Assembly: GCF_000143415.4 (NCBI RefSeq)
Contig: NW_003314272.1
Coordinates: forward strand, 1,496,374 to 1,560,373
Direction of reading: 5' to 3'
DNA: 64,000 nt
Source of the DNA: Selaginella moellendorffii
Lineage: Eukaryota; Plantae; Lycopodiophyta
In this document: in pieces, positions 523 through 48,083 of the stretch
Position numbering within the stretch: the first letter of the stretch is position 1
How the letters are laid out: each line of letters starts with the position of its first letter
Notes under the pieces: generated by a model
The model's database searches: none
Seen by the model: the letters and a program-made list of their open reading frames with translations, nothing else
Told to the model about the DNA's origin: nothing
Position numbers and translations under genes: made by a program

Positions 523-4231
<3,709 letters not shown>

Positions 4232-22735: not shown

Positions 22736-24587
22736 ACAACGCTTCTTGGGCAAGGTGCAGTATCTCAGTCGTTTTCTGAATCATCTTTCTGATCGCACTA
22801 CATCGTTGCAAGTGTTGCTAAAGTCATCAACATCATCTTTGATCTGGTCTTCGGATTGTGAGCGGGCATTTGTGGATCTCAAAGAGCTATTAACGACTCC
22901 TCTAGTTTTAGCATATCCTAACTACACTTGACCTTTTATTTTGCTGTGTGGATGCTTATGACATTAGTCTTGGAGGTGTGTTGATGCAAAAGAGCTTGAG
23001 TCTGCCTAGTCAGTGCCATCCCATTATGTAAATAAGCCGTATATTACAACCAGCAGAGATGAACTACTCCACGATAGAGAAGGAGTGTTTAGTAGCAGTT
23101 TGGGGTTTCAAGAAACTTTATGCATATTTACATAGTTCTTAGACATTATTTGAAGATGACCATACTGCTGTTACTTCATTATTGAAGCAGAAGAACTTGG
23201 TTGGTCATACTGCTGGATGGGCTTTGAAGCTTTAAATATATGATTTTGATGTTGTTCATCACCCAGGGAGTTTTAGGGCTGATGCTGATGCCCTTTCTCG
23301 AGCTCCTCTTCCTTCTCCACTCTCTTCTCATGTTTTTGACGAGCCTATTGTTCTAGCATCTGTGGATTTTCTAAATGAGGATTCTGTGCCATTGGCAATT
23401 GCTGTACTTGATGTTCAGTGTCCACAAGGTGCAAAGCAAGATCTACCTTCTTTTGATGAGGTTTGCGAGGCTCAAAAGATTAAGCCATGGATTCAAAGGC
23501 TTCGAGATGGGTTTGAGAATCCTGTATCACTTACTGATGATTTGCCTTTTCAGCATTTACATTCTCAATATCACCTTGAAGACGGCCTTCTTTATTTTGT
23601 GGGGATGGATTCTGATGATCATTTACGGCTGGTGGTGCCTTCTGTCTTTGTTCCATGGTTTCTCCATGCCTACCATGATTCTCCTATTCTAGGTGGGCAT
23701 ATAGTATATCGTCATGTAATTGAGAAGTTGCGCAGGTCTTTCTATTAGCTAAAGATGTGATGTGATATTATCTGGTATGTGCGTAGCTTCGTTTGGTGCC
23801 AAGCTCGTAATACTCCCCCTTGTACCGTGGAAGGATAGTTGGAGTCAATTGTAATTTCCTGTCCGTTTGAGTGGGTGGCATTTGATCTTATGGGACCTTT
23901 TCCACGGTCAACCTTTAGCAATGAATATGTTATTATTGCTTCTAACTACTTAACTTGTTGTGTGGAAGTTGGTGCTTTTGCTAGTGCCTTTGCAATTGCT
24001 GTTGGATATTTCCTCCTCAATCGAGTGGTGTTCCAACATTTTTATCCAGAGCAGATTCTTTTGGATAATGGTCCCACATTTATGGCTAAGGCATTTCATG
24101 TTTTGATGTCTCAGTTGAGGATACACCACACTTTCATGAGTGCTTATCATCCACAATCATATGGTCTGGTGGAACGGCTCATTTGGACATTCAAAAGGAT
24201 GATTGCGAAGTATGTGAACTTTCAGCATTTAGATTGGGATGGTTATTTGCCATTTCTTCGGTATGTATATGTCATAGGGGTGCAGAGTTCTGTTGGTGCT
24301 TCACTATATAAACTCCTATACGGTCATGATCCAATATTACCGATGGAGCTGGGTTTACCTTCGCGATTGCCATGAGCTGCCGATGCTAGGTCATGGGATC
24401 AGTATTTGACAAACATTCTTCCACTTGTCCGAGCAGAGTCTGCCGAACACTTAGGCCGCGTACAAGTGGGACAACAATGGCATGACAACTCCCATCATTG
24501 TCCACCTACAGAGTATAAAGTGGAAGTTTTGGTGTTCGTCCATTTTCCCCATCTTACAGTATGTGGTTTATCTAAGGGGCTCCTTGC
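22736..24587 (+). pseudogene. Element A RNase H and integrase (continues at 45687-45930)
   Basis: RFLGKVQYLSRF; NYSTIEKECL; ADADALSR; HDSPILGGH; DLMGPF; LLDNGPTF; YHPQSYGLVERL; WKGPYRV after the insertion of C. Confidence 0.9.
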
Positions 24588-25726
24588 TGTAAGGAATTGA
24601 CTCCCCGAGATGTTGTAGGCTAAAGGATCCCTGAAAGCTTGACCAAAATGACAAAGAGTTCATCGGATGGGACCGAGTCGAAGATCGAGTCCAAGACCAA
24701 CTCTGAGACCGAGTTCAAGATAGAGTCCGGGATCGAGCCGAGGCCGAATCGGAGACCGAGATCGAGACCGAGTTCGAGACGGAGTCCAAGATCCAAATCG
24801 GGTCCAAGTCCGAGTCCGAGGTCGAGTCCGAGATCAGGTCCGAGATTGAGTCCGAGATCGAGTCCGAGACCGAATCCGAAGTCGGGTCCGAGATCGAGTC
24901 CGAGATCGATTCTGAGACTAAGTCCACATACTAATACAGCTCAAGGGGTGAAAGCCCAAAACATGTGTCTCCCAGGGGGGGGGGGGGGAGGCTGCAGGGG
25001 GTTCCAAAAGTATAGTAGGGATAGTGAGGTCTAGGAACCAGTCTTGAAGGAACTCTCCAGTGGTGCTTCCAAACTGACTTGAGGTTGAGATTGGGGCCGG
25101 GGGGCCTTGGGTGGGAGTGAGCATGGGCTTGAGTGGTGCCGGAGGGGCCACCCAGGGAAGTGCTCAAGAGCAGCTCCCACTCCCGAAAGGGAAACCGACT
25201 GCGGTGCTCCCGGCTCATGTGGAGTGGTGCCCCACTTGAGTACCTTGTGGCTCATTGGTCCTCGCCCTTCCTTGGGGCTTGGGCCTTCCCTTCGGGATGG
25301 AAGTGGGGGGGTAGAGGTACCCATACCGGGCCGTTAGGCCACGGTGTTTCACCCCGACGTCCCGAAGCAAGTGCTGCACCCAAGGCTTGGGATTTAGAGG
25401 GTCCCATGATCAAGTCTTGTGGTACCAAGGGGTGTTAGGAATCTGGAGGCTTGGTGTGCTTGGCTGCTTGTTCCTGCAGAGAGTGTAGCCAAACCTTAAG
25501 TCTAGTCTAACCTGGGGAGGGGGATTAGGAGAGATTTGGGAATCTGTAGATGGATGGCTAACACTCCATTGCTCGTGCAGTGAGTAGCTGAAACCAAGTA
25601 GGACCAAGTAGGAGCTGGTACCATAGGCGGGAACCTTGGCGAGGGAACTTAGCACGAGCCAAGGCAGAGTTGGTCGGATAGATGAGGTAAGCTGGCAAAT
25701 TGGAAAGGAAAAATTTATGACTTACA
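24588..25726 (+). repeat. 5' LTR of element C with internal GAGTCCGAGATC-type repeats and a poly-G tract
   Basis: Close direct repeat of 44523-45686. Confidence 0.95.
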
Positions 25727-25785
25727 ATTTGGTATCGGAGCCTCTTCCTCAGTTCTAGCGAAGGGTAGAGGCGGATTGCTGGGAG

Positions 25786-27936
25786 ATGGCAAGGGCAGGA
25801 CGTAAGCGAACCCAGGCGGAAACAGAACCTCCTCCAGAGCTGGAGCCTCCGGTCGAACAGGAGGCTATGGATGAGGAATCCTTGCATGAGGAGGACTCTA
25901 GTGAGGCAACTTCCAAACAGGAGTCGAGGTTCGGTCATCCAAGGCTCGATTGGACGTTCTAGAAGGACAATTGGCACAGACCAATGCCCTGCTGGAGACT
26001 CTCGTACGCAAGCTAAAGCATGATGAGAAGCGGAAGAAAAAGCGAAAGACTGCGGATGCTAGCAGCGCAGAAGGTGCGGACCCTTCGGCAGAGACTAAGG
26101 CAAAACCAAACAAGGTTAAACAGACCGAAGTGGAATCAGTCCCTCAGGCAGTTCCCAAGTACAAACCAAAGCCCCCACCGGTCTTCAAGGGAGTGAATGA
26201 CTATAAGGTGGTGGAGGATTAGTTTTATGATATGGAGGACTACTTCTGAGCGTTGTAATTACCGAGCTCGGAGAAGGTCCCATGTGCAAAACCATACTTG
26301 GCAGATAATGCCAAGTCTTGGTGGAGAACGACAGAGGCCAACGAAGGACCGGTGGCCACTTGGGAAATGATGAAGGCAAGGATCCGTGCAACTTACGTTC
26401 CTCCGAATGCTACTTTGCATCTAAGGGACGAGCTGAGTAGGCTGAAGTAGACCGGAACCATTCAGGAGTATGTGAATGGGTTTATGGCAAAGAGGATACT
26501 TGTCACGGACATGGGGGATATGGATGCGTTCCATGCCTTCATATCAGGTTTGCAAACTTGGTCTCGCGGTGAAGTGATGCGGTGGAACCCGAACAACTAC
26601 AAGGAAGCGTTGGATGCGGCCATCAAGGTGCATTTCAACGATAACCTGCGAAAGGGGAACACGACGGGGTCGAGATCCACGTTTAGCAAAGGGGCCAAAC
26701 CAAGGGGAACGTTTAGCAGAGGGAAATTCAAGAAGAGTTTCTCTAAGAATGAGTCCTCGGGGTTTCGGAAAGGCAAATCCGGTGGCCAGCGAGCGAGTAC
26801 GTGGGGGAGTCAAGCGAAAAGAGACAAACCCATGGATAAGAAGGTCAAGTCGTATAGCAGCGTGGGAAACAACGTATGCTACAACTGCGGCGAAGCGGGA
26901 CACTTTTCGAGGGAATGTCCCTACCCGAAGAAGGCCAGAGCCAATATCGCCATCAAGTCGGGTGAAGTCCAAATTGAGGTATGTGATCTAGTCCCTAACT
27001 CAAAGTTACTCATTACACGAGCAACTTTGGTAGAGAGTCGTTCGCGACATCTACTAGCCCTCCGAGGGAAGCTCGGAGGTAGCTTTGTTAAGATCCTTAT
27101 TGACATGGGTGCTTCGGATAATTTTGTGGCTGCAGACATAGTGTGGCAAGTCGGACTAACAGTGCAGTGGCTAGGCGAACCAAGGACTATAGAGTTTGTT
27201 CAAGGTAGCCAAAGCACCGATGAGGTACTTCGACAAGCGAGAGTCGAAGTGGGGTCTTGGAAGGTGGATATGGATTTCACCGTAGTGGACATGGTGGGAT
27301 TTGACGTGATCTTCGGAATGGATTGGTTCAATCGGTTCATGGTAGCCTTGCATGGACAAAGTAGGAACCTTGTGGTACTGGCGAATGCCCAAGGAAGAAG
27401 GTCTAGGGTGGAGGCCCAAGATCTAAAGGTAGGGCAAAGCAAGGCCAAAGATTCCTGCTTAAACCTGGTGTCCACGAGAGGACAACTCACTAAAGGAATT
27501 AAGGCAGCCTTTTTGTGCTTACTCTCGGTGAAGAGTGACAAAAAGACAGGAACGGAAGAAGTACCTTTAGTAATCCAGCAGGTGTTGGACCAATTCTAGA
27601 ATACCATGCCGGAGGAGCTACCGGCGGGGCTGCCCCCAGCACGACCGATAGAATATAAGATTGAGCTGGTCGAGGGTGCTGAGGCGGTGGTTCGTCCCCC
27701 GTATCGTTTAAACGAAAAAGAACTCAAGGAGCTCAAGTGCCAACTAGAGGAGTTGGTGGACAAAGGGTATGTTAGGTTGAGCAAGTCGCCGTATGGGGCG
27801 CCGGTGTTATTTGTGAAAAAGAAAGATGGATCTATACACATGTGCATAGACTACTGGTTGCTCAACAAGTATACAAAGAAGAACAAATACCCTTTGCCAA
27901 GGATTGAGGACCTGTTCAATATGTTGGGAAATATGT
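25786..27936 (+). pseudogene. Element C gag, protease and N-terminus of RT
   Basis: CYNCGEAGHFSREC knuckle; LIDMGASDNF; DVIFGMDWF; [16 protein letters not shown]; [10 protein letters not shown]; several stops; truncated at the D array. Confidence 0.92.
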
Positions 27937-28658
27937 CAGCAGTTTTGGACTTGGTTAATCCACAGACCCGTAAGGTCTTATTTGTGAGGCACTAGCTCAC
28001 TGGAATACACTTCTTGCATTCCTGTCCTACTCAAAAGGACTATTTTCACAAGTGTTACTCCGGCACTTGATTTTGTTCTCTAGGGGCAACCTTTGCCCCT
28101 TAGGACTACTTGTCCATGTGATGAGAACACCAACTCATCCACTTAATACACCCCCAACTCCTGGGGTTGTTCCAGCATTTATTAGAGGTAGCCCCGGCTA
28201 CCTTTTCAAGGACTTGAGTCCTCTTCCGTATTTGACCTCCCACGGTCATTACTTCTGGTCTCACATTCATGAGCACCAACCTCAACTATATGAGGAAAAT
28301 CTTGTGACTCCTTTATTGCTTTGGAGTCTTTATCTTTCCCGTGATCCCAACTGTAGTTGTTTACCACAACTACATTAGCCAGTTTGCTAAGTCAAATGCT
28401 CATCTGGATCACATCCTCAACTCTTTGAGGAAAACCATATATTGTTCCCAAGATCCCAAAGTCGTTCCATTATTGGCCCTTTTCTATCCACCACATTGTG
28501 CCCAAGTTCACGCATGAACTCGAGTGGAGAGCCATGTCCTCTCGACATGCTACTCCTCAAGGATAGGCCCACTCCTAGGACCATCCGATGCCAACATCAA
28601 TGGTGATATACTTGAGCACCAATAAAAGTCAGACTAAGGAACAGCTCCGATACCAAGT

Positions 28659-30481
28659 TGTAGGCGACTAATTTTTCCATTCTACTTTAGTCACTTAACC
28701 ACACCTCCGACCACTTGGAGGAGTCTCATTCACAACCTCCATCAGTCCAATTCAGGACTTGGGACTTGCTAGCCCCAAGAATGGCATCCATGCCACTCAA
28801 CACTTGCACCTGGTCCAGGTGCTCCACGTGTCCGGTCCCAAGACCGACACCCAAAGGTGCCACTGACATCTCGGCCCGTTACGCTAAGGCCATGCCCATT
28901 CACCTTTGCTGCACTAGTGGTCCAATACCACTTGCATCACCATCCCGTCTCTCCAAGACTAGGCCATCTGTCCACGAGTGGTCATCCTAGATCCACACCT
29001 TAGCATCCTTAGGATGCCCACAGACCTGGGGAATCGCCTTCCCCAAAGTCCCTTTGTCAGTTCCTACCAAGTCCCTTTCTGCCCCTGGCCGTGTTTGCCA
29101 ACACTGCCACTGGATCGAGGCCCACAGGCCCGACCACTAAGTCCCACGGTCCTCTGGGACTTCCTCACCACATGACTGTGTCCTTGGTCACCACCCCAGA
29201 GGACTGCTCCTCTTCCTTTCCACAGTCTGGGCCTTTGGGACAACATTTCGGAACACCGTGGCCTTACGCGAGCCACCTGGGTACTCTCCCCACCTATCGC
29301 CTTTAGGTGCTCTAGCCATGGGCTTAGAGCGAGGTTCCGTTGAGCCACACCTGGTATCCAAATAGGTAGTGCCACCCACACTTGGACTGGGAGCATCGGC
29401 CAGTCGATCCCCCGGGGGAACTAGAGCCGGCTCTTGAACACTTCACCAAGCTACCCCGCTTGTCGGTCCATGTTCACCCTAGTCTTGGACTTCCCAGTGG
29501 TCAGCTCATCACCCAACACTGGGTCCGGCCTTCCTGGGCCAAACTGGCCTTTCCTGGCCAAACTGGCTCCACTGCAGTCCTCCCCCTACTATACTTTTGG
29601 AGCTCACCAAACCCCCCAGGGTCTGGGAGACGAACGCTTTGGGCTTTCACCCTCTCAGGCTCCGGACTCGGACTCGGACTCGGACTCGGACTCGGACTCG
29701 GATTCGGACTTGGACTCGGGCTCGGGCTCGGTCTCGGCCTCGGCCTCGGTCTCGGTCTCGGTCCCGATCTCGGTCTCGGTCTCAGTCTCGGTCCCGGTCT
29801 CGGTCTCGACTTCGGACTCCATCTCGGACTCCATCTCGGACTCCATCTCGGGTCCATCTCGGGTCCATCTCGGACTCCATCTCGGACTCCATCTTGGGTC
29901 CATCTCGGACTCCATCTCGGACTCCATCTTGGGTCCATCTCGGACTCCATCTCAGACTCCATCTCGGACTCCATCTCGGGTCCATCTCGGACTCCACTTC
30001 GGACTCCAACTCGGGTCCATCTCGGATCCACCTCGGACTCCACTTCGGACTCCACTTCGGACTCCATCTCGGACTCCATTTCGGACTCCAACTCGGGTCC
30101 ATCTCGGATCCACCTCGGACTCCACTTCGGACTCCATCTCGGACTCCATTTCGGACTCCAACTCGGGTCCATCTCGGATCCACCTCGGACTCCACTTCGG
30201 ACTCCATCTCGGACTCCATTTCGGACTCCAACTCGGGTCCATCTCGGACACTCCCACGTGTCATGTGTTGGTCCTTTTGGGTCCCTTTTTGGAGCCTCGC
30301 CTTTTGTTCGCTTCGTGCTCGTTCCTCGAGCACTTCGTTGGGAGTTCCACTCCCGCTCTTGACTTTTCAAGTCGGAGCTTTTGGTCCAAACGTGTTACGC
30401 TCGTTTGGCTCTCGCTTCAGCCACTACCACGTGGCACCCTTTCCGGCTCCACTTTGGGGCCTAGGGATTTTGTGTCTCACA
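28659..30481 (-). repeat. D LTR copy 1 (1823 bp) with TCGGAC / CCATCTCGGACT minisatellite
   Basis: TG...CA ends on the minus strand; repeat tract at about 29660-30250. Confidence 0.9.
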
Positions 30482-33400
30482 ACTCCACCACCCATAGACG
30501 AAGTTCGATGTCCTCATCGAACGGTAAACCATTTTGTAAAGTAACACTCGCATGTGTTACCATTTCCATCCTTGGCACCTAGCCAATATTTGTCAATGGT
30601 TTGACATTGAAGGCTCACCATGCCTTTTGCATATGCCTCAATGGTTTGACACCAAAGGCTCACCATGCCTTGCCTATCCTCTAAGGAGGGTAGTCTCTCC
30701 AACTTAGAGACTGATTGGACCACATATAGTGGTTCTCTCCTTTTATTGGTTTAGTTCTCACTAAACCTTTTAGAGACCCTTCGCTAAGTCAATCCTACTA
30801 CTCCTTCTTGAGTAGTCTCAATTTCCATCTATTGAATGTTTGCACCTTGGAACTTTTACTCTTTTGACTTTTTGGAAGTCAATTTCCTAGGTGTCTCCAA
30901 CACCTTGCATTGCACAGATTGTACAACTCCACTTCCCTATCCTAGGAAGTTCATTACTTGAGGGCACCATCATCCTCTCTTCTATTTCATGCCACCTTGG
31001 GCACTAAGTTCCATTTATCACACTTTGTGCTAGGCTTGTCCACCGCCCTATCATTTGGCTACCTTACCGCTCCCTCCCTTGGAGCTTCCACTTTCGCCAA
31101 ATCGGAGCAATTCGGAATCCATCCTTGGAAACACACTTCCTTTCCCGCAATTTGTTAGCGTCCAACACATTAGTGTTCCTCGCCTAACTTTGTCACTTGG
31201 ATTCCTTCCCAGGGATTCCACGGCCCTATCTTGGCCACTCATCTTTTGCTCCTATCCGTTGATTGTTGCACCAAGCAACATCGAATCTCTACCTCCCTCC
31301 TTGAGGTATTCTTTTCATTCCATAGCAAAGGCTTTGCTTTGCCAAGACTAGGGTGTTCACCCATAGTAAGTCTCTTTTAGCATCTTCTGCTGTGGGCTCT
31401 ATCCTCGGCCCAACTTTGTGACCCTCTCATGGGTCTCTTTAGAGACTACTTTCCTTAGACACACTATGCCATCGCAATGACATAGCTCATTTCCCTAAGA
31501 TGCTTTTCCCACTTGGTCACCTTGACCAAGCCACACCATCATCAATAGTTCAAATCAACACTTTGAACTAGGAACCTTATTCCTTAACCCAAACAAGGAC
31601 CTTGTCCTTATTTAGCCACAAGATCACCTAGTGATCTCACCTCGGCACCTTAACAGGTTTGCCAATAGGTACTAGGTCTTCCAGACCTTTAACTTGTTAA
31701 CTATGACCCCGGGGGCATCCCCCACACTTGGCGGTGCGCCCAAGCCAGCCCTTCCGGCCAAGGGTCCATAGCAACTGAGATTAGGTGTCCCCATCTCACT
31801 CACCACGTCTTTGGTGCCACTTGCACCAAAGCGTTCAAGTTAGATATGCCGAGCTTTCACACTAAGCAATCTAACCGTGCATCACGACTCCGAGGCATCC
31901 CTCGCTTGGCGGTGTGCCCAAACCAGTCTCCCCACTAAGAGTCCATGACCACCGAAATATGAGTGTCCTCATATTCCAAACCATCACCACGCCCTAGTGA
32001 TTTGGGACTCGAACCCAAGCACTAGAGGGTCGGGACTCGAACCCAACCTCCGTATATGCATCTACGGACGGCATCACACAAGATGCCTGGCGTGACTCCC
32101 CACGCCGGTGCACCAACTTATTTTCAAAGCGCGCTATAGATCACAGCTTAGGAACCTAGTTCCTCCACACTGTCAAGTCCTCTCACTTGACATGTCTGTG
32201 ACCATGTATGGACTCCTCCATGCTCGGCCCCATGGCCCACCCTTTTTGGAGTTATCACCTTCAACTAGGGTATTTGTTCCCCCGATGTGCCAATCTCGCT
32301 TGGCAAGTCCTCCGACCACTGTAACATGGTTCCTGCATAAGCGTGAAAGTCCTTGACCATCGACTTTCGTTCAAAGCCCTCTCTTTGAACACTTGGGAAC
32401 TACTTCCCTAACCTTGATAGCCTTGCCTCATGGCAAGCTTCAAGACCATGCTTCTGCTGCGCCACTCTGATTTCGCGCATTCCATGAACCATTTACACTT
32501 GGCCTTTCTAGGTATTAAGCTACCTAGAATCGTCTTTGGGAACCTTGAAGGAACTCTGTCCCTCAGCTTGCTAAGGCCTCCCTTTTTGCAAGCCTTCCAA
32601 ATGCCACATAGTCTAACATAGACAATTCCATAGTTTAGACTCTCCATGGCATCACGGTTGCTAGCGGTAACACCCTCGAGCCCCCACTTGATTCTCCACT
32701 CCCAGCTGGCATAACCAACCTTGGTTATGCCCTTTGATTCCTACGGTTCGGTTCTATCCCTTTACTTCTGGCTTTTTGGCTTCACACTTTTCCTTTGGTC
32801 ATTCTCCTCCAGACCAGGAGGATAGCTTTGCACTTTCTATCATGCTTTAGCAAGTATTCTTAGGGATGAACCTACCCAATAGCCTAGGGAGTGGTTCCTC
32901 AATCCGGGTATGCTCACCTTATAATCCCACACACTGGGATTACATTGTTGCTTATGGGCCTTTACATGCCCATCACTAGCCTTGCCAAAATTCCATTTTT
33001 GGCTTTGTCCAACTCGGGTAGACAGTCCTCTCCTGTCTCCGCAACCTTGGACATTTGGATAGCACCTTCTATCCATCATTCGCTAGGGACTTAGTCCCTT
33101 GGGCTTTATCCATTACCCTCGCGACATCAAACACCACCTTCTGGTGTTCTAGAGTGTTCGGGTGTCCCAATGATGGCTTTCTTGACAATGAGTATTTCCT
33201 TTTATGACATTAACTTACTATATCGCAACACAAGCAACTTATCCCCCGTAAGGGTATATCCAACTTCCCTATGCTATTAAGAAGTCTTGGGTAGCTACCT
33301 TCTACCCGTTTAACCAGTTATTTTGCACCTCTTGCTTAGTTGCCTCATAGTTGTCAAGTCCTACAACTCATTGCTTGGTGCTTTCACACCGCCATCATTA

Positions 33401-34593
33401 TCTGGGTCACCACACTCCAACTGCATGCTCTGCAGCTTAGGCTATGTTATTCCCATTTCCATTGGGATTCCTTTGGCAAGGGGTTCTCATGAACCCACCA
33501 ACATAGCCTCAAGGTATCACACCTTGGCACATTTGGTGTCCCCACACCATCGGCTCCACGAGCCTACCTCTATGACATTTCCCCTTCGTGTCTAAGTCTT
33601 TGCCAAGACCAACACCGCTCTTTCTCATGCCAACCATCCGTTAGCACTGCACCATAGAGGTCACACACAACTTTATGTCAAAGTTGTTTTCTTCTAGGAA
33701 CACCTTTTCCCATAACTTTAGCATGGCATATTTTGCCATCGATGAGATACCCTCTGTTCTCATCCTTGGATCCTATGATCCCCCCCCATCCTTTGTGGGG
33801 TACAACACACCTCAGTCCAAATGCTTCCATCAGTCCTTTTAGGACCATCTGTTGACTCTACTTGAGTCATCCAGCAGTTTTGGACTTGGTTAATCCACAG
33901 ACCCGTAAGGTCTTATTTGTGAGGCACTAGCTCACTGGAATACACTTCTTGCATTCCTGTCCTACTCAAAAGGACTATTTTCACAAGTGTTACTCCGGCA
34001 CTTGATTTTGTTCTCTAGGGGCAACCTTTGCCCCTTAGGACTACTTGTCCATGTGATGAGAACACCAACTCATCCACTTAATACACCCCCAACTCCTGGG
34101 GTTGTTCCAGCATTTATTAGAGGTAGCCCCGGCTACCTTTTCAAGGACTTGAGTCCTCTTCCGTATTTGACCTCCCACGGTCATTACTTCTGGTCTCACA
34201 TTCATGAGCACCAACCTCAACTATATGAGGAAAATCTTGTGACTCCTTTATTGCTTTGGAGTCTTTATCTTTCCCGTGATCCCAACTGTAGTTGTTTACC
34301 ACAACTACATTAGCCAGTTTGCTAAGTCAAATGCTCATCTGGATCACATCCTCAACTCTTTGAGGAAAACCATATACTGTTCCCAAGATCCCAAAGTCGT
34401 TCCATTATTGGCCCTTTTCTATCCACCACATTGTGCCCAAGTTCACGCATGAACTCGAGTGGAGAGCCATGTCCTCTCGACATGCTACTCCTCAAGGATA
34501 GGCCCACTCCTAGGACCATCCGATGCCAACATCAATGGTGATATACTTGAGCACCAATAAAAGTCAGACTAAGGAACAGCTCCGATACCAAGT

Positions 34594-36293
34594 TGTAGGC
34601 GACTAATTTTTCCATTCTACTTTAGTCACTTAACCACACCTCCGACCACTTGGAGGAGTCTCATTCACAACCTCCATCAGTCCAATTCAGGACTTGGGAC
34701 TTGCTAGCCCCAAGAATGGCATCCATGCCACTCAACACTTGCACCTGGTCCAGGTGCTCCACGTGTCCGGTCCCAAGACCGACACCCAAAGGTGCCACTG
34801 ACATCTCGGCCCGTTACGCTAAGGCCATGCCCATTCACCTTTGCTGCACTAGTGGTCCAATACCACTTGCATCACCATCCCGTCTCTCCAAGACTAGGCC
34901 ATCTGTCCACGAGTGGTCATCCTAGATCCACACCTTAGCATCCTTAGGATGCCCACAGACCTGGGGAATCGCCTTCCCCAAAGTCCCTTTGTCAGTTCCT
35001 ACCAAGTCCCTTTGTCAGTTCCTACCAAGTCCCTTTCTGCCCCTGGCCGTGTTTGCCAACACTGCCACTGGATCGAGGCCCACAGGCCCGACCACTAAGT
35101 CCCACGGTCCTCTGGGACTTCCTCACCACATGACTGTGTCCTTGGTCACCACCCCAGAGGACTGCTCCTCTTCCTTTCCACAGTCTGGGCCTTTGGGACA
35201 ACATTTCGGAACACCGTGGCCTTACGCGAGCCACCTGGGTACTCTCCCCACCTATCGCCTTTAGGTGCTCTAGCCATGGGCTTAGAGCGAGGTTCCGTTG
35301 AGCCACGCCTGGTATCCAAATAGGTAGTGCCACCCACACTTGGACTGGGAGCATCGGCCAGTCGATCCCCCGGGGGAACTAGAGCCGGCTCTTGAACACT
35401 TCACCAAGCTACCCCGCTTGTCGGTCCATGTTCACCCTAGTCTTGGACTTCCCAGTGGTCAGCTCATCACCCAACACTGGGTCCGGCCTTCCTGGGCCAA
35501 ACTGGCCTTTCCTGGCCAAACTGGCTCCACTGCAGTCCTCCCCCTACTATACTTTTGGAGCTCACCAAACCCCCCAGGGTCTGGGAGACGAACGCTTTGG
35601 GCTTTCACCCTCTCAGGCTCCGGACTCGGACTCGGACTCGGACTCGGACTCGGACTCGGATTCGGACTTGGACTCGGGCTCGGGCTCGGTCTCGGCCTCG
35701 GCCTCGGTCTCGGTCTCGGTCCCGATCTCGGTCTCAGTCTCGGTCCCGGTCTCGGTCTCGACTTCGGACTCCATCTCGGACTCCATCTCGGACTCCATCT
35801 CGGGTCCATCTCGGGTCCATCTCGGACTCCATCTCGGACTCCATCTTGGGTCCATCTCGGACTCCATCTCGGACTCCATCTTGGGTCCATCTCGGACTCC
35901 ATCTCAGACTCCATCTCGGACTCCATCTCGGGTCCATCTCGGACTCCACTTCGGACTCCAACTCGGGTCCATCTCGGATCCACCTCGGACTCCACTTCGG
36001 ACTCCACTTCGGACTCCATCTCGGACTCCATTTCGGACTCCAACTCGGGTCCATCTCGGACACTCCCACGTGTCATGTGTTGGTCCTTTTGGGTCCCTTT
36101 TTGGAGCCTCGCCTTTTGTTCGCTTCGTGCTCGTTCCTCGAGCACTTCGTTGGGAGTTCCACTCCCGCTCTTGACTTTTCAAGTCGGAGCTTTTGGTCCA
36201 AACGTGTTACGCTCGTTTGGCTCTCGCTTCAGCCACTACCACGTGGCACCCTTTCCGGCTCCACTTTGGGGCCTAGGGATTTTGTGTCTCACA
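34594..36293 (-). repeat. D LTR copy 2 (1700 bp)
   Basis: Same as copy 1 but with fewer 70-bp units and an extra 23-bp duplication. Confidence 0.9.
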
Positions 36294-39200
36294 ACTCCAC
36301 CACCCATAGACGAAGTTCGATGTCCTCATCGAACGGTAAACCATTTTGTAAAGTAACACTCGCATGTGTTACCATTTCCATCCTTGGCACCTAGCCAATA
36401 TTTGTCAATGGTTTGACATTGAAGGCTCACCATGCCTTTTGCATATGCCTCAATGGTTTGACACCAAAGGCTCACCATGCCTTGCCTATCCTCTAAGGAG
36501 GGTAGTCTCTCCAACTTAGAGATTGATTGGACCACATATAGTGGTTCTCTCCTTTTATTGGTTTAGTTCTCGCTAAACCTTTTAGAGACCCTTCGCTAAG
36601 TCAATCCTACTACTCCTTCTTGAGTAGTCTCAATTTCCATCTATTGAATGTTTGCACCTTGGAACTTTTACTCTTTTGACTTTTTGGAAGTCAATTTCCT
36701 AGGTGTCTCCAACACCTTGCATTGCACAGATTGTACAACTCCACTTCCCTATCCTAGGAAGTTCATTACTTGAGGGCACCATCATCCTCTCTTCTATTTC
36801 ATGCCACCTTGGGCACTAAGTTCCATTTATCACACTTTGTGCTAGGCTTGTCCACCGCCCTATCATTTGGCTACCTTACCGCTCCCTCCCTTGGAGCTTC
36901 CACTTTCGCCAAATCGGAGCAATTCGGAATCCATCCTTGGAAACACACTTCCTTTCCCGCAATTTGTTAGCGTCCAACACATTAGTGTTCCTCGCCTAAC
37001 TTTGTCACTTGGATTCCTTCCCAGGGATTCCACGGCCTTATCTTGGCCACTCATCTTTTGCTCCTATCCGTTGATTGTTGCACCAAGCAACATCGAATCT
37101 CTACCTCCCTCCTTGAGGTATTCTTTTCATTCCATAGCAAAGGCTTTGCTTTGCCAAGACTAGGGTGTTCACCCATAGTAAGTCTCTTTTAGCATCTTCT
37201 GCTGTGGGCTCTATCCTCGGCCCAACTTTGTGACCCTCTCATGGGTCTCTTTAGAGACTACTTTCCTTAGACACACTATGCCATCGCAATGACATAGCTC
37301 ATTTCCCTAAGGTGCTTTTCCCACTTGGTCACCTTGACCAAGCCACACCATCATCAATAGTTCAAATCAACACTTTGAACTAGGAACCTTATTCCTTAAC
37401 CCAAACAAGGACCTTGTCCTTATTTAGCCACAAGATCACCTAGTGATCTCACCTTGGCACCTTAACAGGTTTGCCAATAGGTACTAAGTCTTCCAAACCT
37501 TTAACTTGTTAACTATGACCCCGGGGGCATCCCCCACACTTGGCGGTGCGCCCAAGCCAGCCCTTCCGGCCAAGGGTCCATAGCAACTGAGATTAGGTGT
37601 CCCCATCTCACTCACCACGTCTTTGGTGCCACTTGCACCAAAGCGTTCAAGTTAGATATGCCGAGCTTTCACACTAAGCAATCTAACCGTGCATCACGAC
37701 TCCGAGGCATCCCTCACTTGGCGGTGTGCCCAAACCAGTCTCCCCACTAAGAGTCCATGACCACCGAAATATGAGTGTCCTCATATTCCAAACCATCACC
37801 ACGCCCTAGTGATTTGGGACTCGAACCCAAGCACTAGAGGGTCGGGACTCGAACCCAACCTCCGTATATGCATCTACAGACGGCATCACACAAGATGCCT
37901 GGCGTGACTCCCCACGCCGGTGCACCAACTTATTTTCAAAGCGCGCTATAGATCACAGCTTAGGAACCTAGTTCCTCCACACTGTCAAGTCCTCTCACTT
38001 GACATGTCTGTGACCATGTATGGACTCCTCCATGCTCGGCCCCATGGCCCACCCTTTTTGGAGTTATCACCTTCAACTAGGGTATTTGTTCCCCCGATGT
38101 GCCAATCTCGCTTAGCAAGTCCTCCGACCACTGTAACATGGTTCCTGCATAAGCGTGAAAGTCCTTGACCATCGACTTTCGTTCAAAGCCCTCTCTTTGA
38201 ACACTTGGGAACTACTTCCCTAACCTTGATAGCCTTGCCTCATGGCAAGCTTCAAGACCATGCTTCTGCTGCGCCACTCTGATTTCGCGCATTCCATGAA
38301 CCATTTACACTTGGCCTTTCTAGGTATTAAGCTACCTAGAATCGTCTTTGGGAACCTTAAAGGAACTCTGTCCCTCAGCTTGCTAAGGCCTCCCTTTTTG
38401 CAAGCCTTCCAAATGCCACATAGTCTAACATAGACAATTCCATAGTTTAGACTCTCCATGGCATCACGGTTGCTAGCGGTAACACCCTCGAGCCCCCACT
38501 TGATTCTCCACTCCCAGCTGGCATAACCAACCTTGGTTATGCCCTTTGATTCCTACGGTTCGGTTCTATCCCTTTACTTCTGGCTTTTTGGCTTCACACT
38601 TTTCCTTTGGTCATTCTCCTCCAGACCAGGAGGATAGCTTTGCACTTTCTATCATGCTTTAGCAAGTATTCTTAGGGATGAACCTACCCAATAGCCTAGG
38701 GAGTGGTTCCTCAATCCGGGTATGCTCACCTTATAATCCCACACACTGGGATTACATTGTTGCTTATGGGCCTTTACATGCCCATCACTAGCCTTGCCAA
38801 AATTCCATTTTTGGCTTTGTCCAACTCGGGTAGACAGTCCTCTCCTGTCTCCGCAACCTTGGACATTTGGATAGCACCTTCTATCCATCATTCGCTAGGG
38901 ACTTAGTCCCTTGGGCTTTATCCATTGCCCTCGCGACATCAAACACCACCTTCTGGTGTTCTAGAGTGTTCGGGTGTCCCAATGATGGCTTTCTTGACAA
39001 TGAGTATTTCCTTTTATGACATTAACTTACTATATCGCAACACAAGCAACTTATCCCCCGTAAGGGTATATCCAACTTCCCTATGCTATTAAGAAGTCTT
39101 GGGTAGCTACCTTCTACCCGTTTAACCAGTTATTTTGCACCTCTTGCTTAGTTGCCTCATAGTTGTCAAGTCCTACAACTCATTGCTTGGTGCTTTCACA

Positions 39201-40405
39201 CCGCCATCATTATCTGGGTCACCACACTCCAACTGCATGCTCTGCAGCTTAGGCTATGTTATTCCCATTTCCATTGGGATTCCTTTGGCAAGGGGTTCTC
39301 ATGAACCCACCAACATAGCCTCAAGGTATCACACCTTGGCACATTTGGTGTCCCCACACCATCGGCTCCACGAGCCTACCTCTATGACATTTCCCCTTCG
39401 TGTCTAAGTCTTTGCCAAGACCAACACCGCTCTTTCTCATGCCAACCATCCGTTAGCACTGCACCATAGAGGTCACACACAACTTTATGTCAAAGTTGTT
39501 TTCTTCTAGGAACACCTTTTCCCATAACTTTAGCATGGCATATTTTGCCATCGATGAGATACCCTCTGTTCTCATCCTTGGATCCTATGATCCCCCCCCA
39601 TCCTTTGTGGGGTACAACACACCTCAGTCCAAATGCTTCCATCAGTCCTTTTAGGACCATCTGTTGACTCTACTTGAGTCATCCAGCAGTTTTGGACTTG
39701 GTTAATCCACAGACCCGTAAGGTCTTATTTGTGAGGCACTAGCTCACTGGAATACACTTCTTGCATTCCTGTCCTACTCAAAAGGACTATTTTCACAAGT
39801 GTTACTCCGGCACTTGATTTTGTTCTCTAGGGGCAACCTTTGCCCCTTAGGACTACTTGTCCATGTGATGAGAACACCAACTCATCCACTTAATACACCC
39901 CCAACTCCTGGGGTTGTTCCAGCATTTATTAGAGGTAGCCCCGGCTACCTTTTCAAGGACTTGAGTCCTCTTCCGTATTTGACCTCCCACGGTCATTACT
40001 TCTGGTCTCACATTCATGAGCACCAACCTCAACTATATGAGGAAAATCTTGTGACTCCTTTATTGCTTTGGAGTCTTTATCTTTCCCGTGATCCCAACTG
40101 TAGTTGTTTACCACAACTACATTAGCCAGTTTGCTAAGTCAAATGCTCATCTGGATCACATCCTCAACTCTTTGAGGAAAACCATATACTGTTCCCAAGA
40201 TCCCAAAGTCGTTCCATTATTGGCCCTTTTCTATCCACCACATTGTGCCCAAGTTCACGCATGAACTCGAGTGGAGAGCCATGTCCTCTCGACATGCTAC
40301 TCCTCAAGGATAGGCCCACTCCTAGGACCATCCGATGCCAACATCAATGGTGATATACTTGAGCACCAATAAAAGTCAGACTAAGGAACAGCTCCGATAC
40401 CAAGT

Positions 40406-42233
40406 TGTAGGCGACTAATTTTTCCATTCTACTTTAGTCACTTAACCACACCTCCGACCACTTGGAGGAGTCTCATTCACAACCTCCATCAGTCCAATTC
40501 AGGACTTGGGACTTGCTAGCCCCAAGAATGGCATCCATGCCACTCAACACTTGCACCTGGTCCAGGTGCTCCACGTGTCCGGTCCCAAGACCGACACCCA
40601 AAGGTGCCACTGACATCTCGGCCCGTTACGCTAAGGCCATGCCCATTCACCTTTGCTGCACTAGTGGTCCAATACCACTTGCATCACCATCCCGTCTCTC
40701 CAAGACTAGGCCATCTGTCCACGAGTGGTCATCCTAGATCCACACCTTAGCATCCTTAGGATGCCCACAGACCTGGGGAATCGCCTTCCCCAAAGTCCCT
40801 TTGTCAGTTCCTACCAAGTCCCTTTGTCAGTTCCTACCAAGTCCCTTTCTGCCCCTGGCCGTGTTTGCCAACACTGCCACTGGATCGAGGCCCACAGGCC
40901 CGACCACTAAGTCCCACGGTCCTCTGGGACTTCCTCACCACATGACTGTGTCCTTGGTCACCACCCCAGAGGACTGCTCCTCTTCCTTTCCACAGTCTGG
41001 GCCTTTGGGACAACATTTCGGAACACCGTGGCCTTACGCGAGCCACCTGGGTACTCTCCCCACCTATCGCCTTTAGGTGCTCTAGCCATGGGCTTAGAGC
41101 GAGGTTCCGTTGAGCCACGCCTGGTATCCAAATAGGTAGTGCCACCCACACTTGGACTGGGAGCATCGGCCAGTCGATCCCCCGGGGGAACTAGAGCCGG
41201 CTCTTGAACACTTCACCAAGCTACCCCGCTTGTCGGTCCATGTTCACCCTAGTCTTGGACTTCCCAGTGGTCAGCTCATCACCCAACACTGGGTCCGGCC
41301 TTCCTGGGCCAAACTGGCCTTTCCTGGCCAAACTGGCTCCACTGCAGTCCTCCCCCTACTATACTTTTGGAGCTCACCAAACCCCCCAGGGTCTGGGAGA
41401 CGAACGCTTTGGGCTTTCACCCTCTCAGGCTCCGGACTCGGACTCGGACTCGGACTCGGACTCGGATTCGGACTTGGACTCGGGCTCGGGCTCGGGCTCG
41501 GGCTCGGTCTCGGCCTCGGTCTCGGTCCCGATCTCGGTCTCGGTCTCAATCTCGGTCCCGGTCTCGGTCCCGATCTCGGTCTCGACTTCGGACTCCATCT
41601 CGGACTCCATCTCGGACTCCATCTCGGGTCCATCTCGGGTCCATCTCGGACTCCATCTCGGACTCCATCTTGGGTCCATCTCGGACTCCATCTCGGACTC
41701 CATCTTGGGTCCATCTCGGACTCCATCTCGGACTCCATCTCGGGTCCATCTCGGACTCCACTTCGGACTCCAACTCGGGTCCATCTCGGATCCACCTCGG
41801 ACTCCACTTCGGACTCCATCTCGGACTCCATTTCGGACTCCAACTCGGGTCCATCTCGGATCCACCTCGGACTCCACTTCGGACTCCATCTCGGACTCCA
41901 TTTCGGACTCCAACTCGGGTCCATCTCGAATCCACCTCGGACTCCACTTCGGACTCCATCTCGGACTCCATTTCGGACTCCAACTCGGGTCCATCTTGGA
42001 CACTCCCACGTGTCATGTGTTGGTCCTTTTGGGTCCCTTTTTGGAGCCTCGCCTTTTGTTCGCTTCGTGCTCGTTCCTCGAGCACTTCGTTGGGAGTTCC
42101 ACTCCCGCTCTTGACTTTTCAAGTCAGAGCTTTTGGTCCAAACGTGTTACGCTCGTTTGGCTCTCGCTTCAGCCACTACCACGTGGCACCCTTTCCGGCT
42201 CCACTTTGGGGCCTAGGGATTTTGTGTCTCACA
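40406..42233 (-). repeat. D LTR copy 3 (1828 bp), 5' end of the array
   Basis: Ends TCTCACA directly against the RNase H sequence of C (AQRKWPAHEKEL). Confidence 0.9.
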
Positions 42234-44119
42234 GCTCAACGGAAGTGGCCTGCCCACGAGAAGGAATTGTTTGCGGTGGTCAAGGCACTCAAGGAGTGGC
42301 GACACTACCTTGGGAGACACTTCAAGGTTTACACGGACAATGTGGCAACGAAACACTTCTTGTCACAGCCCGACCTGAGAGGGAAACAAGGTCGGTGGGC
42401 CAATGCCTTGGCTGAGTTTGATTGTGAGATTCTGTACAAGCCTGGGAAGAGCGACATCGTGGCGGATGCGCTAAGTCGAAAAGCGAGCTTGAGGTTGGCA
42501 ATATCCAGCGCAACAGCAACCTTCTGGGACGATGTGCGCACAGCATATGAGAACGATGGTCTAGCACAAGAAGTGTTGCTGAGGAATCTAGAGGCACAGG
42601 AAGCTCACCAGAGAGGTGAGCTGCCAACGGAAGAGAAAACGGCCTATGCAGAACGCAACGGACTCATCTATTACAAGCAAACGAGGGTGTATGTTCCAGA
42701 AGGGGAACTAAGGAAGGTAGCCTTAGAAAAGTGTCATGACGGACCTCTTGCGAGACACAGCGGAGTGCCCAAGACGATGGGCTTACTCAAGAGGAAGTAC
42801 CATTGGCCAGATATGGCTAAGGACGTCCAAGACTATGTAAAGACATGTCCAACATGTCAGCAGGTAAAAGCCGTGACTAAGGCTAGTGGGGGCTTGTTGC
42901 AAAGCATCGCAATTCCAGATCGTCTGTGGAAATGTCTTACGATGGACTTCATCACGGGACTCCCCCCAAGCGAGGGGTTTGATACGATATTCGTGGTGGT
43001 GGACCGATTTTCAAAAATGGCATATTTCATACCCACCACAATGGAGGTGGATGCGGAAGGTGTGGCGAAGCTATTCTTCGAACAAGTGGTTCGAGTGCGG
43101 GGAAGACCGGAAGAGATCATCTCAGATCGAGATAAGATCTTCACCAGTAGGTTCTAGAGGACTCTCCTGGAACAGTATCGCACCAAGTTGAAATTCAGCA
43201 CAGCCTATCACCCACAGACAGGTATGGGGTATTAAGTCAAGTTGTTGGCACTAACACTTCTTGACAGACGGACAAACGGAAAGGGTGAATAGGTAGCTGG
43301 AGGATTATTTGCGATGCTATATCTCGGGAGACTAGACCGATTGGGTAAGTCATTTGGGACTTGCGGAAATGTGTTATAACAACTCACCACATTCGAGTAT
43401 CGGGGTGAGTCCATGGGAAGTCATAAATGGGCGAGCTATTGAAGGTCCCGTGGAACTCGGCGTAGCCGAGTATCATGGAGAGTTACCCGTAGTGGAGGCA
43501 TTCACGGTGGAAAGACTCAACATTTGGAATCTAGTGAGGGATTCCTTGGAACGAGCTCAACAAAGGCAAACCAAGTACGCGAACCAGAAGTGTCGGGACG
43601 TAGAGTTCCAAGCTGGGGAGAAGGTGTGGCTGAACACCAAGAACCTCAGGCTACCAAGTGGGATCAGCCGGAAGTTGACCCAAAGGTAAAAATGCATGTA
43701 TTCCTGTAAATGAATTGATCTTGAGATCCTTAAGCAGGTTCGCTGGGCCTTACGAGATTGAGGCATGAATCGGTAAAGTGGCTTACCGACTCCGACTTCC
43801 TCGAGAGATGGGGAAGATGCACCCAGTGTTCCACGTGAACTTACTCAAGTCGTACTTTGAGGATCCGCTTCACAAGGACCAAGCAAGACCTTTACCTGAG
43901 GTTATCCAAGGGGAAGAGGAATACGAAGTTGAAGCCATCCTCAATGCGCGCAAGAGCAAGCGACAAGGACGCGAGGTGAGAGAGTTCCATGTGAAGTGGA
44001 AAGGATTCCCACACTGCGAAGCAACATGGGAACTGGAGGAGAACCTAGCGAACGCGCAAGATCTAGTGGAAGAATTTCTGCAAGGCAGAACTCTATGTAC
44101 TTATGCAAAGTTCAATTAA
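42234..44119 (+). pseudogene. Element C RNase H, integrase and chromodomain, with two introns (43222-43267, 43686-43737)
   Basis: HEKELFAVV; VADALSR; HDGPLARH; CPTC; MDFITGLP; IISDRD; spliced HPQTDGQTERVN and KLTQRFAGPY; YEVEAIL...VKWKGF...ATWE chromodomain; a few TAG/TGA lesions. Confidence 0.92.
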
Positions 44120-44205
44120 AAATATCAATTTGCAAAGTTGAGCAAGTGGCATATGTTGGGACCCGAAGGCGCACCGAAGGTAAGCTAATTAGCATGGGTT
44201 AGATA

Positions 44206-44465
44206 GGTCGACCAGGCGTAGGGCACTACACCCGACTCCCCGTGAGGATGTCAAATCCGTAGACGTATTCTATGGAGGTTGGGTTCGAGTCCTAACCCCC
44301 TAGTAAAGCAAGGCTGGGTTCAAGTCCCAACCCCATACTAGGGCGTGGTGAGGTGAGGGGTATAGGGACACCTATATTCCGTTGTCATGGGCTCTTGGCC
44401 GGGGAGGCTAACTTAGGCACACCGCTAAGTGGGGGGATGCCCCCGGAAACATGGTCAACAAGTCG
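44206..44465 (+). other. Conserved structured-RNA module in the 3' UTR of C (homologues in D at 31695-32114 and 37507-37926, minus strand)
   Basis: Series of hairpins with compensatory changes between C and D, including two GGG-TTCRAGT-CCY T-loop-like hairpins. Confidence 0.65.
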
Positions 44466-44522
44466 TAGGATAAAAAGAGACGTTCGATGTGGGCATCAAA
44501 CTTCTTTTATGGGTGGTGGAGT

Positions 44523-45686
44523 TGTAAGGAACCGACTCCCCGAGATGTTGTAGGCTAAAGGATCCCCGAAAGCTTGACCAAAATGACAAAGAGTTCATCG
44601 GATGGGACCGAGTCGAAGATCGAGTCCAAGACCGACTCTGAGACCAAGTTCGAGATAGAGTCCGGGATCGAGCCGAGCCCGAATCGGAGACCGAGATCGA
44701 GACCGAGTTTGAGACGGAGTCCGAGATCCAAATTGGGTCCAAGACCGAGTCCGAGGTCGAGTCCGAAGTCGAGTCCGAGATCGGGTCTGAGATCGAGTCC
44801 GAGATCGAGTTCGAGACCGAATCCGAAGTCGAGTCCGAGATCGAGTCCGAGATCGAGTCCGAGATCGATTCTGAGACTAAGTCCACATACTAATACAGCT
44901 CAAGGGGTGAAAGCCCAAAACGTGTGTCTCCCAGGGGGGGGGGGGGGGGGGCTGCAGGGGGTTCCAAAAGTATAGTAGGGATAGTGAGGTCCAGGAACCA
45001 GTCTTGAAGGAACTCTCCAGTGGTGCTTCCAAACTGACTTGAGGTTGAGACTGGGGCCGAGGGGCCTTGGGTGGGAGAGAGCATGGGCTTGAGTGGTGCC
45101 GAAGGGGCCACCCAGGGAAGTGCTCAAGAGCAGCTCCCACTCCCGAAAGGGAAACCGACTGCGGTGCTCCCCGCTCATGTGGAGTGGTGCCCCACTTGAG
45201 TACCTTGTGGCTCATTGGTCCTCGCCCTTCCTTGGGGCTTGGGCCTTCCCTTCGGGATGGAAGTGGGGGGGTAGAGGTACCCATACCGGGCCGTTAGGCC
45301 ACGGTGTTTCGCCCCGACGTCCCGAAGCAAGTGCTGCACCCAAGGCTTGGGATTTAGAGGGTCCCATGATCAAGTCTTGTGGTACCAAGGGGTGTTAGGA
45401 ATCTGGAGGCTTGGTGTGCTTGGCTGCTTGTGCCTGCAGGGAGTGTAGCTGAACCTTAAGTCCAGTCTAACCCGGGGAGGGGGATTAAGAGAGATTTGGG
45501 AATCCGTAGATGGATGACTAACACTCCATTGCTCATGCAGTGAGTAGCTGAAACCAAGTAGGACCAAGTAGGAGCTGGTACCATAGGCGGGAACCTTGGC
45601 GAGGGAACTTAGCACGAGCCAAGGCAGAGTTGGTCAGATAGACGAGGTAAGCTGGCAAATTAGAAAGGAAAAATTTGTGGCTTACA
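44523..45686 (+). repeat. 3' LTR of element C
   Basis: Direct repeat of 24588-25726; preceded by the PPT. Confidence 0.95.
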
Positions 45687-45943
45687 CTTGTGTAGTGGAA
45701 AGGACCGTATCGGGTGTTGCAGCAAGTTAGACCACAAGTTTATGAGGTTCACCATGACATCTAGCAAGCCAATCCTCTAGAGATTGTGCATGTACAGTGG
45801 TTGAAACGCTTCATACAAAGAGATCAGGAGCAGTTAATACCACCTACAGATCCGCCGATGCTTCCTCTTGACGTTCCTCCAGATTCCGGCCCGTCTACAA
45901 GAGAACCCTGATTGTCTTCTATTATTCTGAGAGGAGGGGATGA

Positions 45944-46119
45944 TGTGAGGGCCAAGTGTACAGCTATAATGCCGTATACTAATATTAGTGTAGTGGGATT
46001 TTTGTAACTGTTGGATTGGTTTCAATCCGGACCACTCGCTCCTGTATATAAGATAGAGTTTTTAGGCTAATTGATATGCACATTTTTTGTATTCCCTTTC
46101 CATATTCTAAGCACTCACA
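45944..46119 (+). repeat. 3' LTR of element A
   Basis: Direct repeat of 13106-13279; preceded by the PPT. Confidence 0.9.
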
Positions 46120-47093: not shown

Positions 47094-48083
47094 TGTTTGC
47101 CCAAATCTCAAGACTACGCAGGCTAGCCTGAAGAGTTTCTTGTTACATGACACACCTCGCCACGTAGACATTAGGGTTTTCCTATTCTGTCTGCTACCAT
47201 GGTGCGCTTTGATCCCGATTTGTCTCATGGTATCGGAGCTGGGATAGTGCTATGGAAGGAAAGCCATCCATCCGTGAGTTTGATGGAGAAGGGTTTGAGG
47301 GATTCAAGATCCATCTTGAATCCTATCTCTTGTTTCATAGTTTGTTGGGGATTGTAGATGGGACAGAGCCATCACCGGCTCTAGGCTCTAGCGCTGCTGA
47401 GGTGTGTGATTGGAACCTTCGGGATTCCAAGGCTAGAGGGAATCTTGCGATGTGCTTGTTCTCAAATGTTCTCTTTGCTGCCCCATTGATTCTAAAGTCC
47501 ACTGCGGCAGAGCTCTGGAAGTGGCTGAGCGACACCTATGGCACCAAGAGTGAAATGGATGTCTTCAACATCCATTCACAAATGGATTCCTTGAGGCTAG
47601 AGGAAAATGGCAGTATCCAGACTCACACTACCAAGCTCCAAGGCTTCTTCACACAACTTGCAGCTGCTAGGGCAAAGCACTGTCTCACGGACGAGCAGCA
47701 AAGGCTGCAGCTTTACATGTCCTTGCCAACTAGCTGGAAGAATGCAGTTGAGAGCCTACTTCTCCAACCAGAGATGACTTGGGCAAATGCCATGAGGAGT
47801 CTTCACAACATTAAGGCCATGCAAAGTGAGAGAGCTGAAATGCTGCAAGCTATGTATGCTTCGCAGGCTTCTGGTGATGCCAAGGTGGCAAAACCGCTTG
47901 CAGCTGCAAATGCCCAGAAAGGGCAAAATTCTGTGGTATCTGGGTGTGCTAAGCCCAAACTTGCTAAGAATCAATGTGCTTGCTGCTTGGAGATGGGCCA
48001 TTGGCTCGAGATTGCACTGCTCCCAAGCCTCTCAAGTGACTAGCTACGACGGCAAAACCTCAGCATCCTCATTTGCTAATAGT
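47094..48083 (+). mobile_element. 5' end of a Ty1/Copia element (short LTR, PBS, gag), cut by the assembly gap
   Basis: ...TCTCA then TGGTATCGGAGC at 47228; ORF 47252-48043 with FDGEGF, LLGIVDGTEPSP, TAAELWKWLSDTY, LYMSLPTSW and CACCLEMGHW (Copia-type gag). The LTR start is uncertain. Confidence 0.8.

Follow-up and report, generated by a model that had tools for sequence, protein, structure and literature searches.

That an element passes through an RNA intermediate is classically proved by the introns it loses when it transposes. Introns occur in the gypsy-like integrase genes of Ginger DNA transposons and domesticated GIN integrases, where they are unproblematic since such genes either transpose at the DNA level or are immobile. 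Among otherwise intronless plant LTR elements, Ogre and EVADE were named as exceptions in a 2025 review (PMC12786077). In Ogre, which belongs to the non-chromovirus Tat/Ogre lineage, one intron of ~270 bp lies between protease and reverse transcriptase (RT); it is spliced from a subset of the transcripts to give the whole polyprotein (PMC6317226) and gates RT, RNase H and integrase jointly. In BARE1, the packaged RNA is uncapped, unspliced and non-polyadenylated, and the capped RNA undergoes splicing and translation (PMC3735527). Alternative splicing with separate RNA pools and a small 104-nt intron characterizes BARE1, EVADE and other Ty1/copia elements, in which splicing yields a short Gag-only message and the unspliced RNA encodes the intact polyprotein (PMC3735527, PMC5580714). 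For Arabidopsis gypsy elements, no conserved splicing was observed (PMC5580714). Penelope-like elements also retain introns, and an intron was inferred for one of their families in Selaginella (PMC8557442).

The family that the locus of this study resembles was described as SM1-Galahad by Novikov, Smyshlyaev and Novikova in 2012, with hundreds of copies in Selaginella moellendorffii at 95% similarity, LTRs of 1076/1146, poly-G tracts of 11-25, a 13-bp Met primer-binding site (PBS) and a length of ~7.5 kb (PMC3350952). The published reconstruction, made from several copies, comprises an ORF1 of 1295 aa that ends in the core integrase without a chromodomain, followed by two more ORFs, one of 316 bp and a final one of 309 bp that carries a group-I chromodomain; these numbers are not consistent with one another, 316 being no multiple of 3 and the 309 bp being termed 113 aa. 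No intact copy was found in that survey, and many copies were deleted. The sister family SM2-Galahad consists of hundreds of copies and is intact, with a single ORF of 1577 aa (PMC3350952). The strings 'intron' and 'splic' do not occur in the text of PMC3350952.

The window analyzed here is a stretch of 64,000 nucleotides of the S. moellendorffii genome, and all coordinates refer to it. A PPR protein encoded in it falls into a 90% cluster with proteins labelled S. moellendorffii. The original prediction described the 3' half of an element; analysis of the whole window located the 5' half (LTR, gag, protease and RT start) at 24588-27936. The 5' LTR (24588..25726, + strand, 1139 bp, TG..CA, poly-G of 14 at 24975) and the 3' LTR (44523..45686, + strand, 1164 bp, TG..CA, poly-G of 18 at 44934) are flanked by a 5-bp target-site duplication (24583..24587 and 45687..45691, four of five positions matching). 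A PBS on the + strand at 25730..25742, which we take to be of the initiator-Met tRNA type, is followed by gag (Retrotrans_gag, with a CCHC knuckle), protease and the start of RT (25786..27936, +), a region with one frameshift near 25930-25960 and five in-frame stops. The copy is interrupted by a nested tandem non-coding LTR element on the opposite strand (27937..42232, -), across which ~735 nt of RT/RNase H are absent. Beyond it lie the 3' part of exon 1 (42233..43221, +; end of RNase H, integrase zinc finger and core up to HPQT; one in-frame stop), exon 2 (43268..43685, +, 418 nt; the rest of the core and the first half of the SH3/GPY module; two in-frame stops) and exon 3 (43738..44119, +, 382 nt; GPY motif, SH3_Tf2-1 and a group-I, HP1-like chromodomain; one in-frame stop), and a polypurine tract (PPT) at 44511..44522 (+).

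Exon 1 matches residues 1158-1267 of Ty3 Gag-Pol, the integrase core up to HPQT, with an E of 2.8e-17. Exon 3 matches Chromo (E 4.7e-16) and SH3_Tf2-1 (E 5.5e-14), and the best PDB match of its chromodomain is HP1 (E 3.9e-09). The direct LTRs, PBS, PPT, target-site duplication, gag-PR-RT-RH-INT order and a chromodomain downstream of the integrase GPY/SH3 module, as in chromoviruses, identify the element as a decayed, full-length Ty3/gypsy chromovirus copy. Since the TG..CA LTRs, PBS, PPT and target duplication are intact, the copy with its introns arrived by retrotransposition. Ginger and GIN lack LTRs, gag and RT, in contrast to this element, which has direct LTRs and encodes Gag, protease and RT. 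A DNA transposon with inverted ends was considered and rejected, the inverted repeats stemming from the related LTR of the nested element. The two LTRs differ by a K2P distance of 0.036 (35 transitions and 5 transversions in 1139 aligned columns). With one frameshift, nine in-frame stops and the RT/RNase H gap, the window copy is dead. Rfam gave no match over 24500-46200. A strong donor-like site at ~44180, in the 3' untranslated part just past the chromodomain stop, marks a candidate third, non-coding intron. Positions 44088-44241 are without read coverage in the RNA runs.

Two inserts interrupt the integrase gene on the + strand. Intron 1 (43222..43267) is 46 nt long and runs from GT to AG, with a CTAAC motif whose A lies 13 nt from the 3' end; intron 2 (43686..43737) is 52 nt long, likewise GT..AG, with a TTGAT motif whose A lies 19 nt from the 3' end. 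These borders are those originally proposed. Both lengths are 1 mod 3, and the integrase reading passes through three frames across them; retention of insert 1 leads to a stop four residues on and retention of insert 2 to an immediate stop. The exact restoration of frame and motifs claimed in the original prediction was confirmed with an uninterrupted homolog, P0012. In tblastn it aligned in three pieces in three frames, joined residue to residue at both sites, residue 1287 being the end of exon 1 and residue 1428 the end of exon 2, with the next pieces resuming at the following residues. Without the inserts the integrase is continuous and no residue is gained or lost. The catalytic aspartate codons are at 42945 and 43125 in exon 1 and the glutamate codon is at 43279 in exon 2; once insert 1 is omitted, exactly 35 residues separate the second aspartate from the glutamate (D-X35-E). 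Both inserts have the GT donor, AG acceptor, branch-like motif and AU-rich composition of U2-type introns, with a GC content of 0.41 (intron 1) and 0.33 (intron 2) against 49-51% in the exons. Introner-type mobile introns would have copies at unrelated sites; elsewhere within the 64-kb window, no match longer than 11 nt to either insert was found.

Disabling insertions are another possible origin of such breaks: the lineage would then have been moved in trans by a helper, either SM2-Galahad or an intronless SM1 master, and any splicing would be incidental. Non-autonomous relatives with an identical PBS and PPT are abundant within the window, and the existence of the intact, single-ORF SM2-Galahad in hundreds of copies beside many deleted SM1 copies (PMC3350952) fits such a history. 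The structure of the inserts speaks against it. In a chance model with 200,000 simulated random inserts (40-60 nt, target duplication of 0-6 nt, any register), GT..AG borders could be read in 2.7% of the inserts, so that two independent sense inserts with exact restoration are expected by chance in ~0.07% of cases. The host-like donors, the branch-like motifs and the low GC content of both inserts, together with their exact removal in contig X15/1 (see below), further weaken this explanation, which we consider improbable.

Introns of the host provided a yardstick for the two inserts. A total of 30 introns was taken from automatic models of three host genes of the window, in one of which a PRMT donor is apparently misplaced; a fourth host gene (a GTPase part) was left out of this count. 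The three control genes, at 3149-4231 (+), 55959-58452 (+) and 58510-60316 (-), contain 5, 13 and 12 short introns, and from their resemblances we take them to encode an NAD(P)-binding protein, CDC27 and an arginine methyltransferase, respectively. The stretch 3792-5826 has a decayed repeat at 48356-50138. Host introns (n=30) measured 49-92 nt, with a median of 57.5 nt and a median GC of 0.38. The agreement with the short intron size of the host that had been proposed for both inserts therefore holds for the 52-nt insert, which is typical, and the 46-nt insert falls just below the range, 3 nt under the shortest of the 30. On a scale of our own rough weights, the donors score 2.9 and 2.8, which places them in the higher portion of the 30 host donors (0.7-4.0), and the acceptors score 0.5 and 1.3, in the low and middle portion of the host range. 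The shortness of intron 1 and the small distance of 13 nt from its branch-like A to the 3' end weigh against its being an ordinary intron. A junction repeat of 5 nt at intron 1 and of 4 nt at intron 2 was observed. The repeat at intron 1 (GACAG) had been regarded as a possible footprint of intron origin, a suggestion that found no support here: one of the 30 host introns has a repeat of 5 nt and nine reach at least 4 nt. As host introns carry comparable repeats, these say little on origin, and the repeat was rejected as proof of it.

Related elements served as a control for the uninterrupted state. Among 453 related genomic loci from metagenomes, 80 were kept, with 44-51% identity. Site 1 is spanned in one frame without an insert in 72 of the 80 and site 2 in 54, and no insert was found at either site among these spanning loci. 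In the remaining loci kept, the site is uncovered, too diverged or, in one case, frameshifted without an insert; this last locus, a distant gypsy relative (L072:2851-3047), has a plain frameshift at the intron 1 site. Among 147 homologous proteins, the HPQ[T/S] motif continues uninterrupted in 137.

Four sequencing runs were compared with positions 42240-44520: a contig from X15, whose RNA nature is a guess, and raw reads of X22, X23 and X24. About 12/100 of each raw run was read, and 11 matching reads were obtained from ~27.6 million, eight in X22, three in X23 and none in this ~12/100 of X24. In contig X15/1 (2500 nt, depth 11.2) precisely the 46 and the 52 nt are absent; both skipped segments have GT..AG borders, and at least 255 letters flank each junction on either side. 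One of the eight matching reads of X22, a raw RNA-seq run, skips the 46 nt of intron 1; none of the 11 matching raw reads skips intron 2. The RNA check that had been proposed thus came out positive at both junctions in contig X15/1, from the run guessed to be RNA, and at intron 1 in the X22 read. Exact GT..AG skips in RNA-derived data mean that the inserts behave as introns, and we conclude with high confidence that they are true introns. One read of X22 passes unspliced from exon 2 into intron 2, an entry deduced by arithmetic on the depth table (75 bases in a bin with 60 exon bases, and 8 more in the next); the depth of X23 points to such an entry as well, though less uniquely. None of these 11 reads reaches 99% likeness to the window copy. 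The words of the region occur at 0.34-0.58 in 14 DNA-like or unlabelled runs and at 0.08-0.17 in five further runs guessed to be RNA, values to which we attach no evidential weight.

Contig X15/1 differs from the window copy at 74 of 1,729 bases (4.3%). The third codon position accounts for 24 of the 40 contig differences listed (p 0.0005), and in 39 of the 64 typed differences the window copy has A/T where the contig has G/C. Stronger decay of the window copy would produce such an A/T excess. The third-position excess indicates that the contig comes from a sibling lineage at another locus, evolving under selection for the protein. Descent of the contig and the window copy from one shared master was rejected, as the excess points to separate lineages. 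The sibling behind the contig could be processed or intronless in its DNA. This bears on a further explanation, a mixed family in which introns are common, spliced RNA is sometimes copied, and intronless siblings supply the integrase in trans and give rise to the skipping RNA. That the contig belongs to a sibling lineage which evolves under purifying selection and lies 4.3% away from the window copy is compatible with it, as is the loss on transposition of an intron placed in Ty1 (PMC12786077); splicing would then be no strict gate. The 2012 survey argues the other way, since it recorded single-ORF elements of SM2-Galahad, Fogey and Diluvium and no intact SM1-Galahad, and since the multi-copy SM1-Galahad reconstruction has both breaks, where a young intronless sub-lineage should have shown itself (PMC3350952). 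We regard a mixed family as unlikely, if the most serious of the alternatives.

Comparison with the published family was made by description (lengths and features) and not by sequence, the supplement giving 0 hits. The window element shares with SM1-Galahad the host, LTRs of more than 1 kb with TG..CA ends and poly-G, a Met PBS, a PPT and a length of ~7.5 kb (~7,540 bp in the window), as well as an ORF1 that stops within the integrase core and, downstream of it, two short ORFs, the second with a group-I chromodomain. Read without splicing, ORF1 of the window would run into intron 1, where a stop ends it at ~1298 aa, a length inferred across the missing RT stretch (1293-1307 over 36 homolog gap lengths). 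The downstream ATG ORFs measure 318 nt (ORF2, 43369-43689, +, beginning in exon 2 and ending in intron 2) and 309 nt (ORF3, 43808-44119, +, inside exon 3), against 316 and 309 bp as published. On this description the window element is likely SM1-Galahad. What was published as three ORFs is read here as one gene with two introns in the gaps, and the match implies that the published majority sequence breaks where the window introns fall. The agreement in unspliced lengths makes it likely that the breaks are family-wide, as do the reads that extend into intron 2 although their likeness to the window copy falls short of 99%; most copies of the family probably carry the introns. Further introns in the missing RT, which the original prediction proposed to look for, are unlikely, at least of a frame-breaking kind, because the published ORF1 of 1295 aa equals the intron-free estimate.

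The original prediction weighed packaging of unspliced RNA against gain of both introns after insertion and held the latter to be unlikely. That both were gained in the window copy of an otherwise intronless family is very improbable. The window copy is the one family copy read directly, and all the distant relatives spanning the sites (72 and 54, among the 80 of 453 kept) are uninterrupted; set against this, the published multi-copy layout fits both breaks, reads of non-identical copies enter intron 2, and the window copy is young and decaying. Of the two options, introns shared by the family are thus the likelier. Separate translation or recoding of the three ORFs, with no need for splicing, might be suggested by the ATG starts of ORF2 and ORF3. 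However, ORF2 begins ~30 codons past the catalytic glutamate and ORF3 past GPY, so the enzyme would not be restored, and stops lie in the non-coding stretches of 46 and 52 bases that readthrough would have to traverse. We consider this the least probable of the explanations.

The reading that we favor, with a probability of roughly 0.65, is that the introns are family-wide, the whole integrase is made from spliced RNA and copying proceeds from unspliced RNA. The unspliced RNA would encode Gag, protease, RT and RNase H, followed by a truncated integrase that has both aspartates but lacks the catalytic glutamate, and the full-length unspliced RNA would be the pool that is reverse-transcribed; if so, this would be why hundreds of copies keep the introns. 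As predicted from the sequence, fully spliced RNA would encode a polyprotein of ~1,560 aa with active integrase, SH3 module and chromodomain. The integrase dose relative to Gag and RT would be set by host splicing, and RNA retaining intron 2 alone may give an integrase without its targeting end. By analogy with BARE1, separate RNA pools are the likeliest route by which the packaged pool could escape splicing. In the stricter form of this reading there is no intronless master, the two introns, located in the active-site and SH3 regions of the integrase, have survived hundreds of reverse-transcription cycles, and the spliceosome alone switches integration, intron 2 adding or dropping the chromodomain; we lean slightly towards this form.

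Among described elements the nearest parallel is Ogre, likewise Ty3/gypsy, with an intron kept through retrotransposition and splicing needed for the full polyprotein (PMC6317226, PMC12786077, PMC3735527, PMC2533021). A Pol-gating intron is already known from Ogre, a precedent that the original prediction overlooked. Unlike Ogre, the window element has two introns of ~50 nt within integrase motifs, and integrase and chromodomain alone are gated. The Ogre type is defined by a tRNA-Arg primer and an extra 5' ORF; here gag, PR and the RT start form one frame without an insert, the PBS is of the Met type and a chromodomain is present. The element works like Ogre but is not Ogre. Relative to the Ty1/copia elements, with which the proposal shares alternative splicing, separate RNA pools and a small intron, the polarity is reversed, the intact polyprotein coming from spliced RNA. 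Penelope-like elements differ in being non-LTR, in lacking a DDE integrase and in their replication. No report of introns in SM1-Galahad or within an LTR-element integrase was found in the open literature searched, and the part of PMC2864245 consulted mentions no such intron; subscription journals, Repbase and the REXdb tables (PMC6317226) may annotate them. Splicing-gated Pol is thus of a known kind, two host-sized introns in a chromovirus integrase are apparently new, and those of SM1-Galahad seem to have been overlooked so far.

A high-copy family that keeps two ~50-nt integrase introns must sort its RNA, spliced for protein and unspliced for copying. SM2-Galahad resembles the window element in its Met PBS, 5-bp target-site duplication, group-I chromodomain and total polyprotein length, and differs from it in one uninterrupted ORF and 919-bp LTRs, which makes it a natural intronless control. 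With this single-ORF sister in the same genome, both the long-debated choice of RNA for packaging and the gain and retention of introns have a built-in control and become testable through sequencing alone. The published annotation of three ORFs and no intact copy is corrected accordingly; copies that appear broken to ORF-based pipelines may be intact, and similar intron-bearing families could go unnoticed elsewhere.

In a quick tree with 71 rows, 70 of them the best-ranking among 249 homologs that cover the full span (unfinished tree search, unlabelled clades), the window branch, of length 1.41, falls between two groups. The best BLAST scores are mostly those of angiosperm-type elements with a YEGP motif, which we presume to be linked to Galadriel. 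Protein collections contained no close family member: the best identity was 49% among 120 of 1118 matches, 47% (27 matches) and 50% (among the best 150 matches) in further searches, and 46% (8 matches) for exon 3. The ORF2 and ORF3 products have no exact sequence in the protein collection, the best identity among the 80 of 453 metagenome loci kept was 51%, and viral and prokaryote contigs contained no related locus.

The remainder of the window contains several other elements. The nested array at 27937-42232 (-) is arranged head to tail, with three LTRs of ~1.8 kb and units of 5.8-5.9 kb at 96-99% identity; its left end is cut ~700 bp past the PBS. Its PBS and PPT are identical to those of the element that it interrupts, the LTRs are ~69% alike and the similarity at the 3' end is 74-77%. 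No match to pol was found in the array with five tblastn queries, and it is likely a non-autonomous parasite of the machinery of its host element. An older gypsy integrase, in which a chromodomain is not obvious, hosts the chromovirus copy in turn (22719-24587 and 45692-45940), and its LTRs may be represented by a repeat of 167 bp that occurs at 13113-13279 and again at 45953-46119. A Copia-type gag ORF (E 5.2e-18) occupies 47213-48183, where a Met-type PBS lies at 47228, and ends at an assembly gap of 100 N. Two ORFs at 10311-11392 presumably encode a DDE transposase of the IS1595/Merlin kind. An ORF at 8204-8986 (-) has what we take to be a Dof-like zinc finger, and its product forms a single-member cluster in the protein collection.
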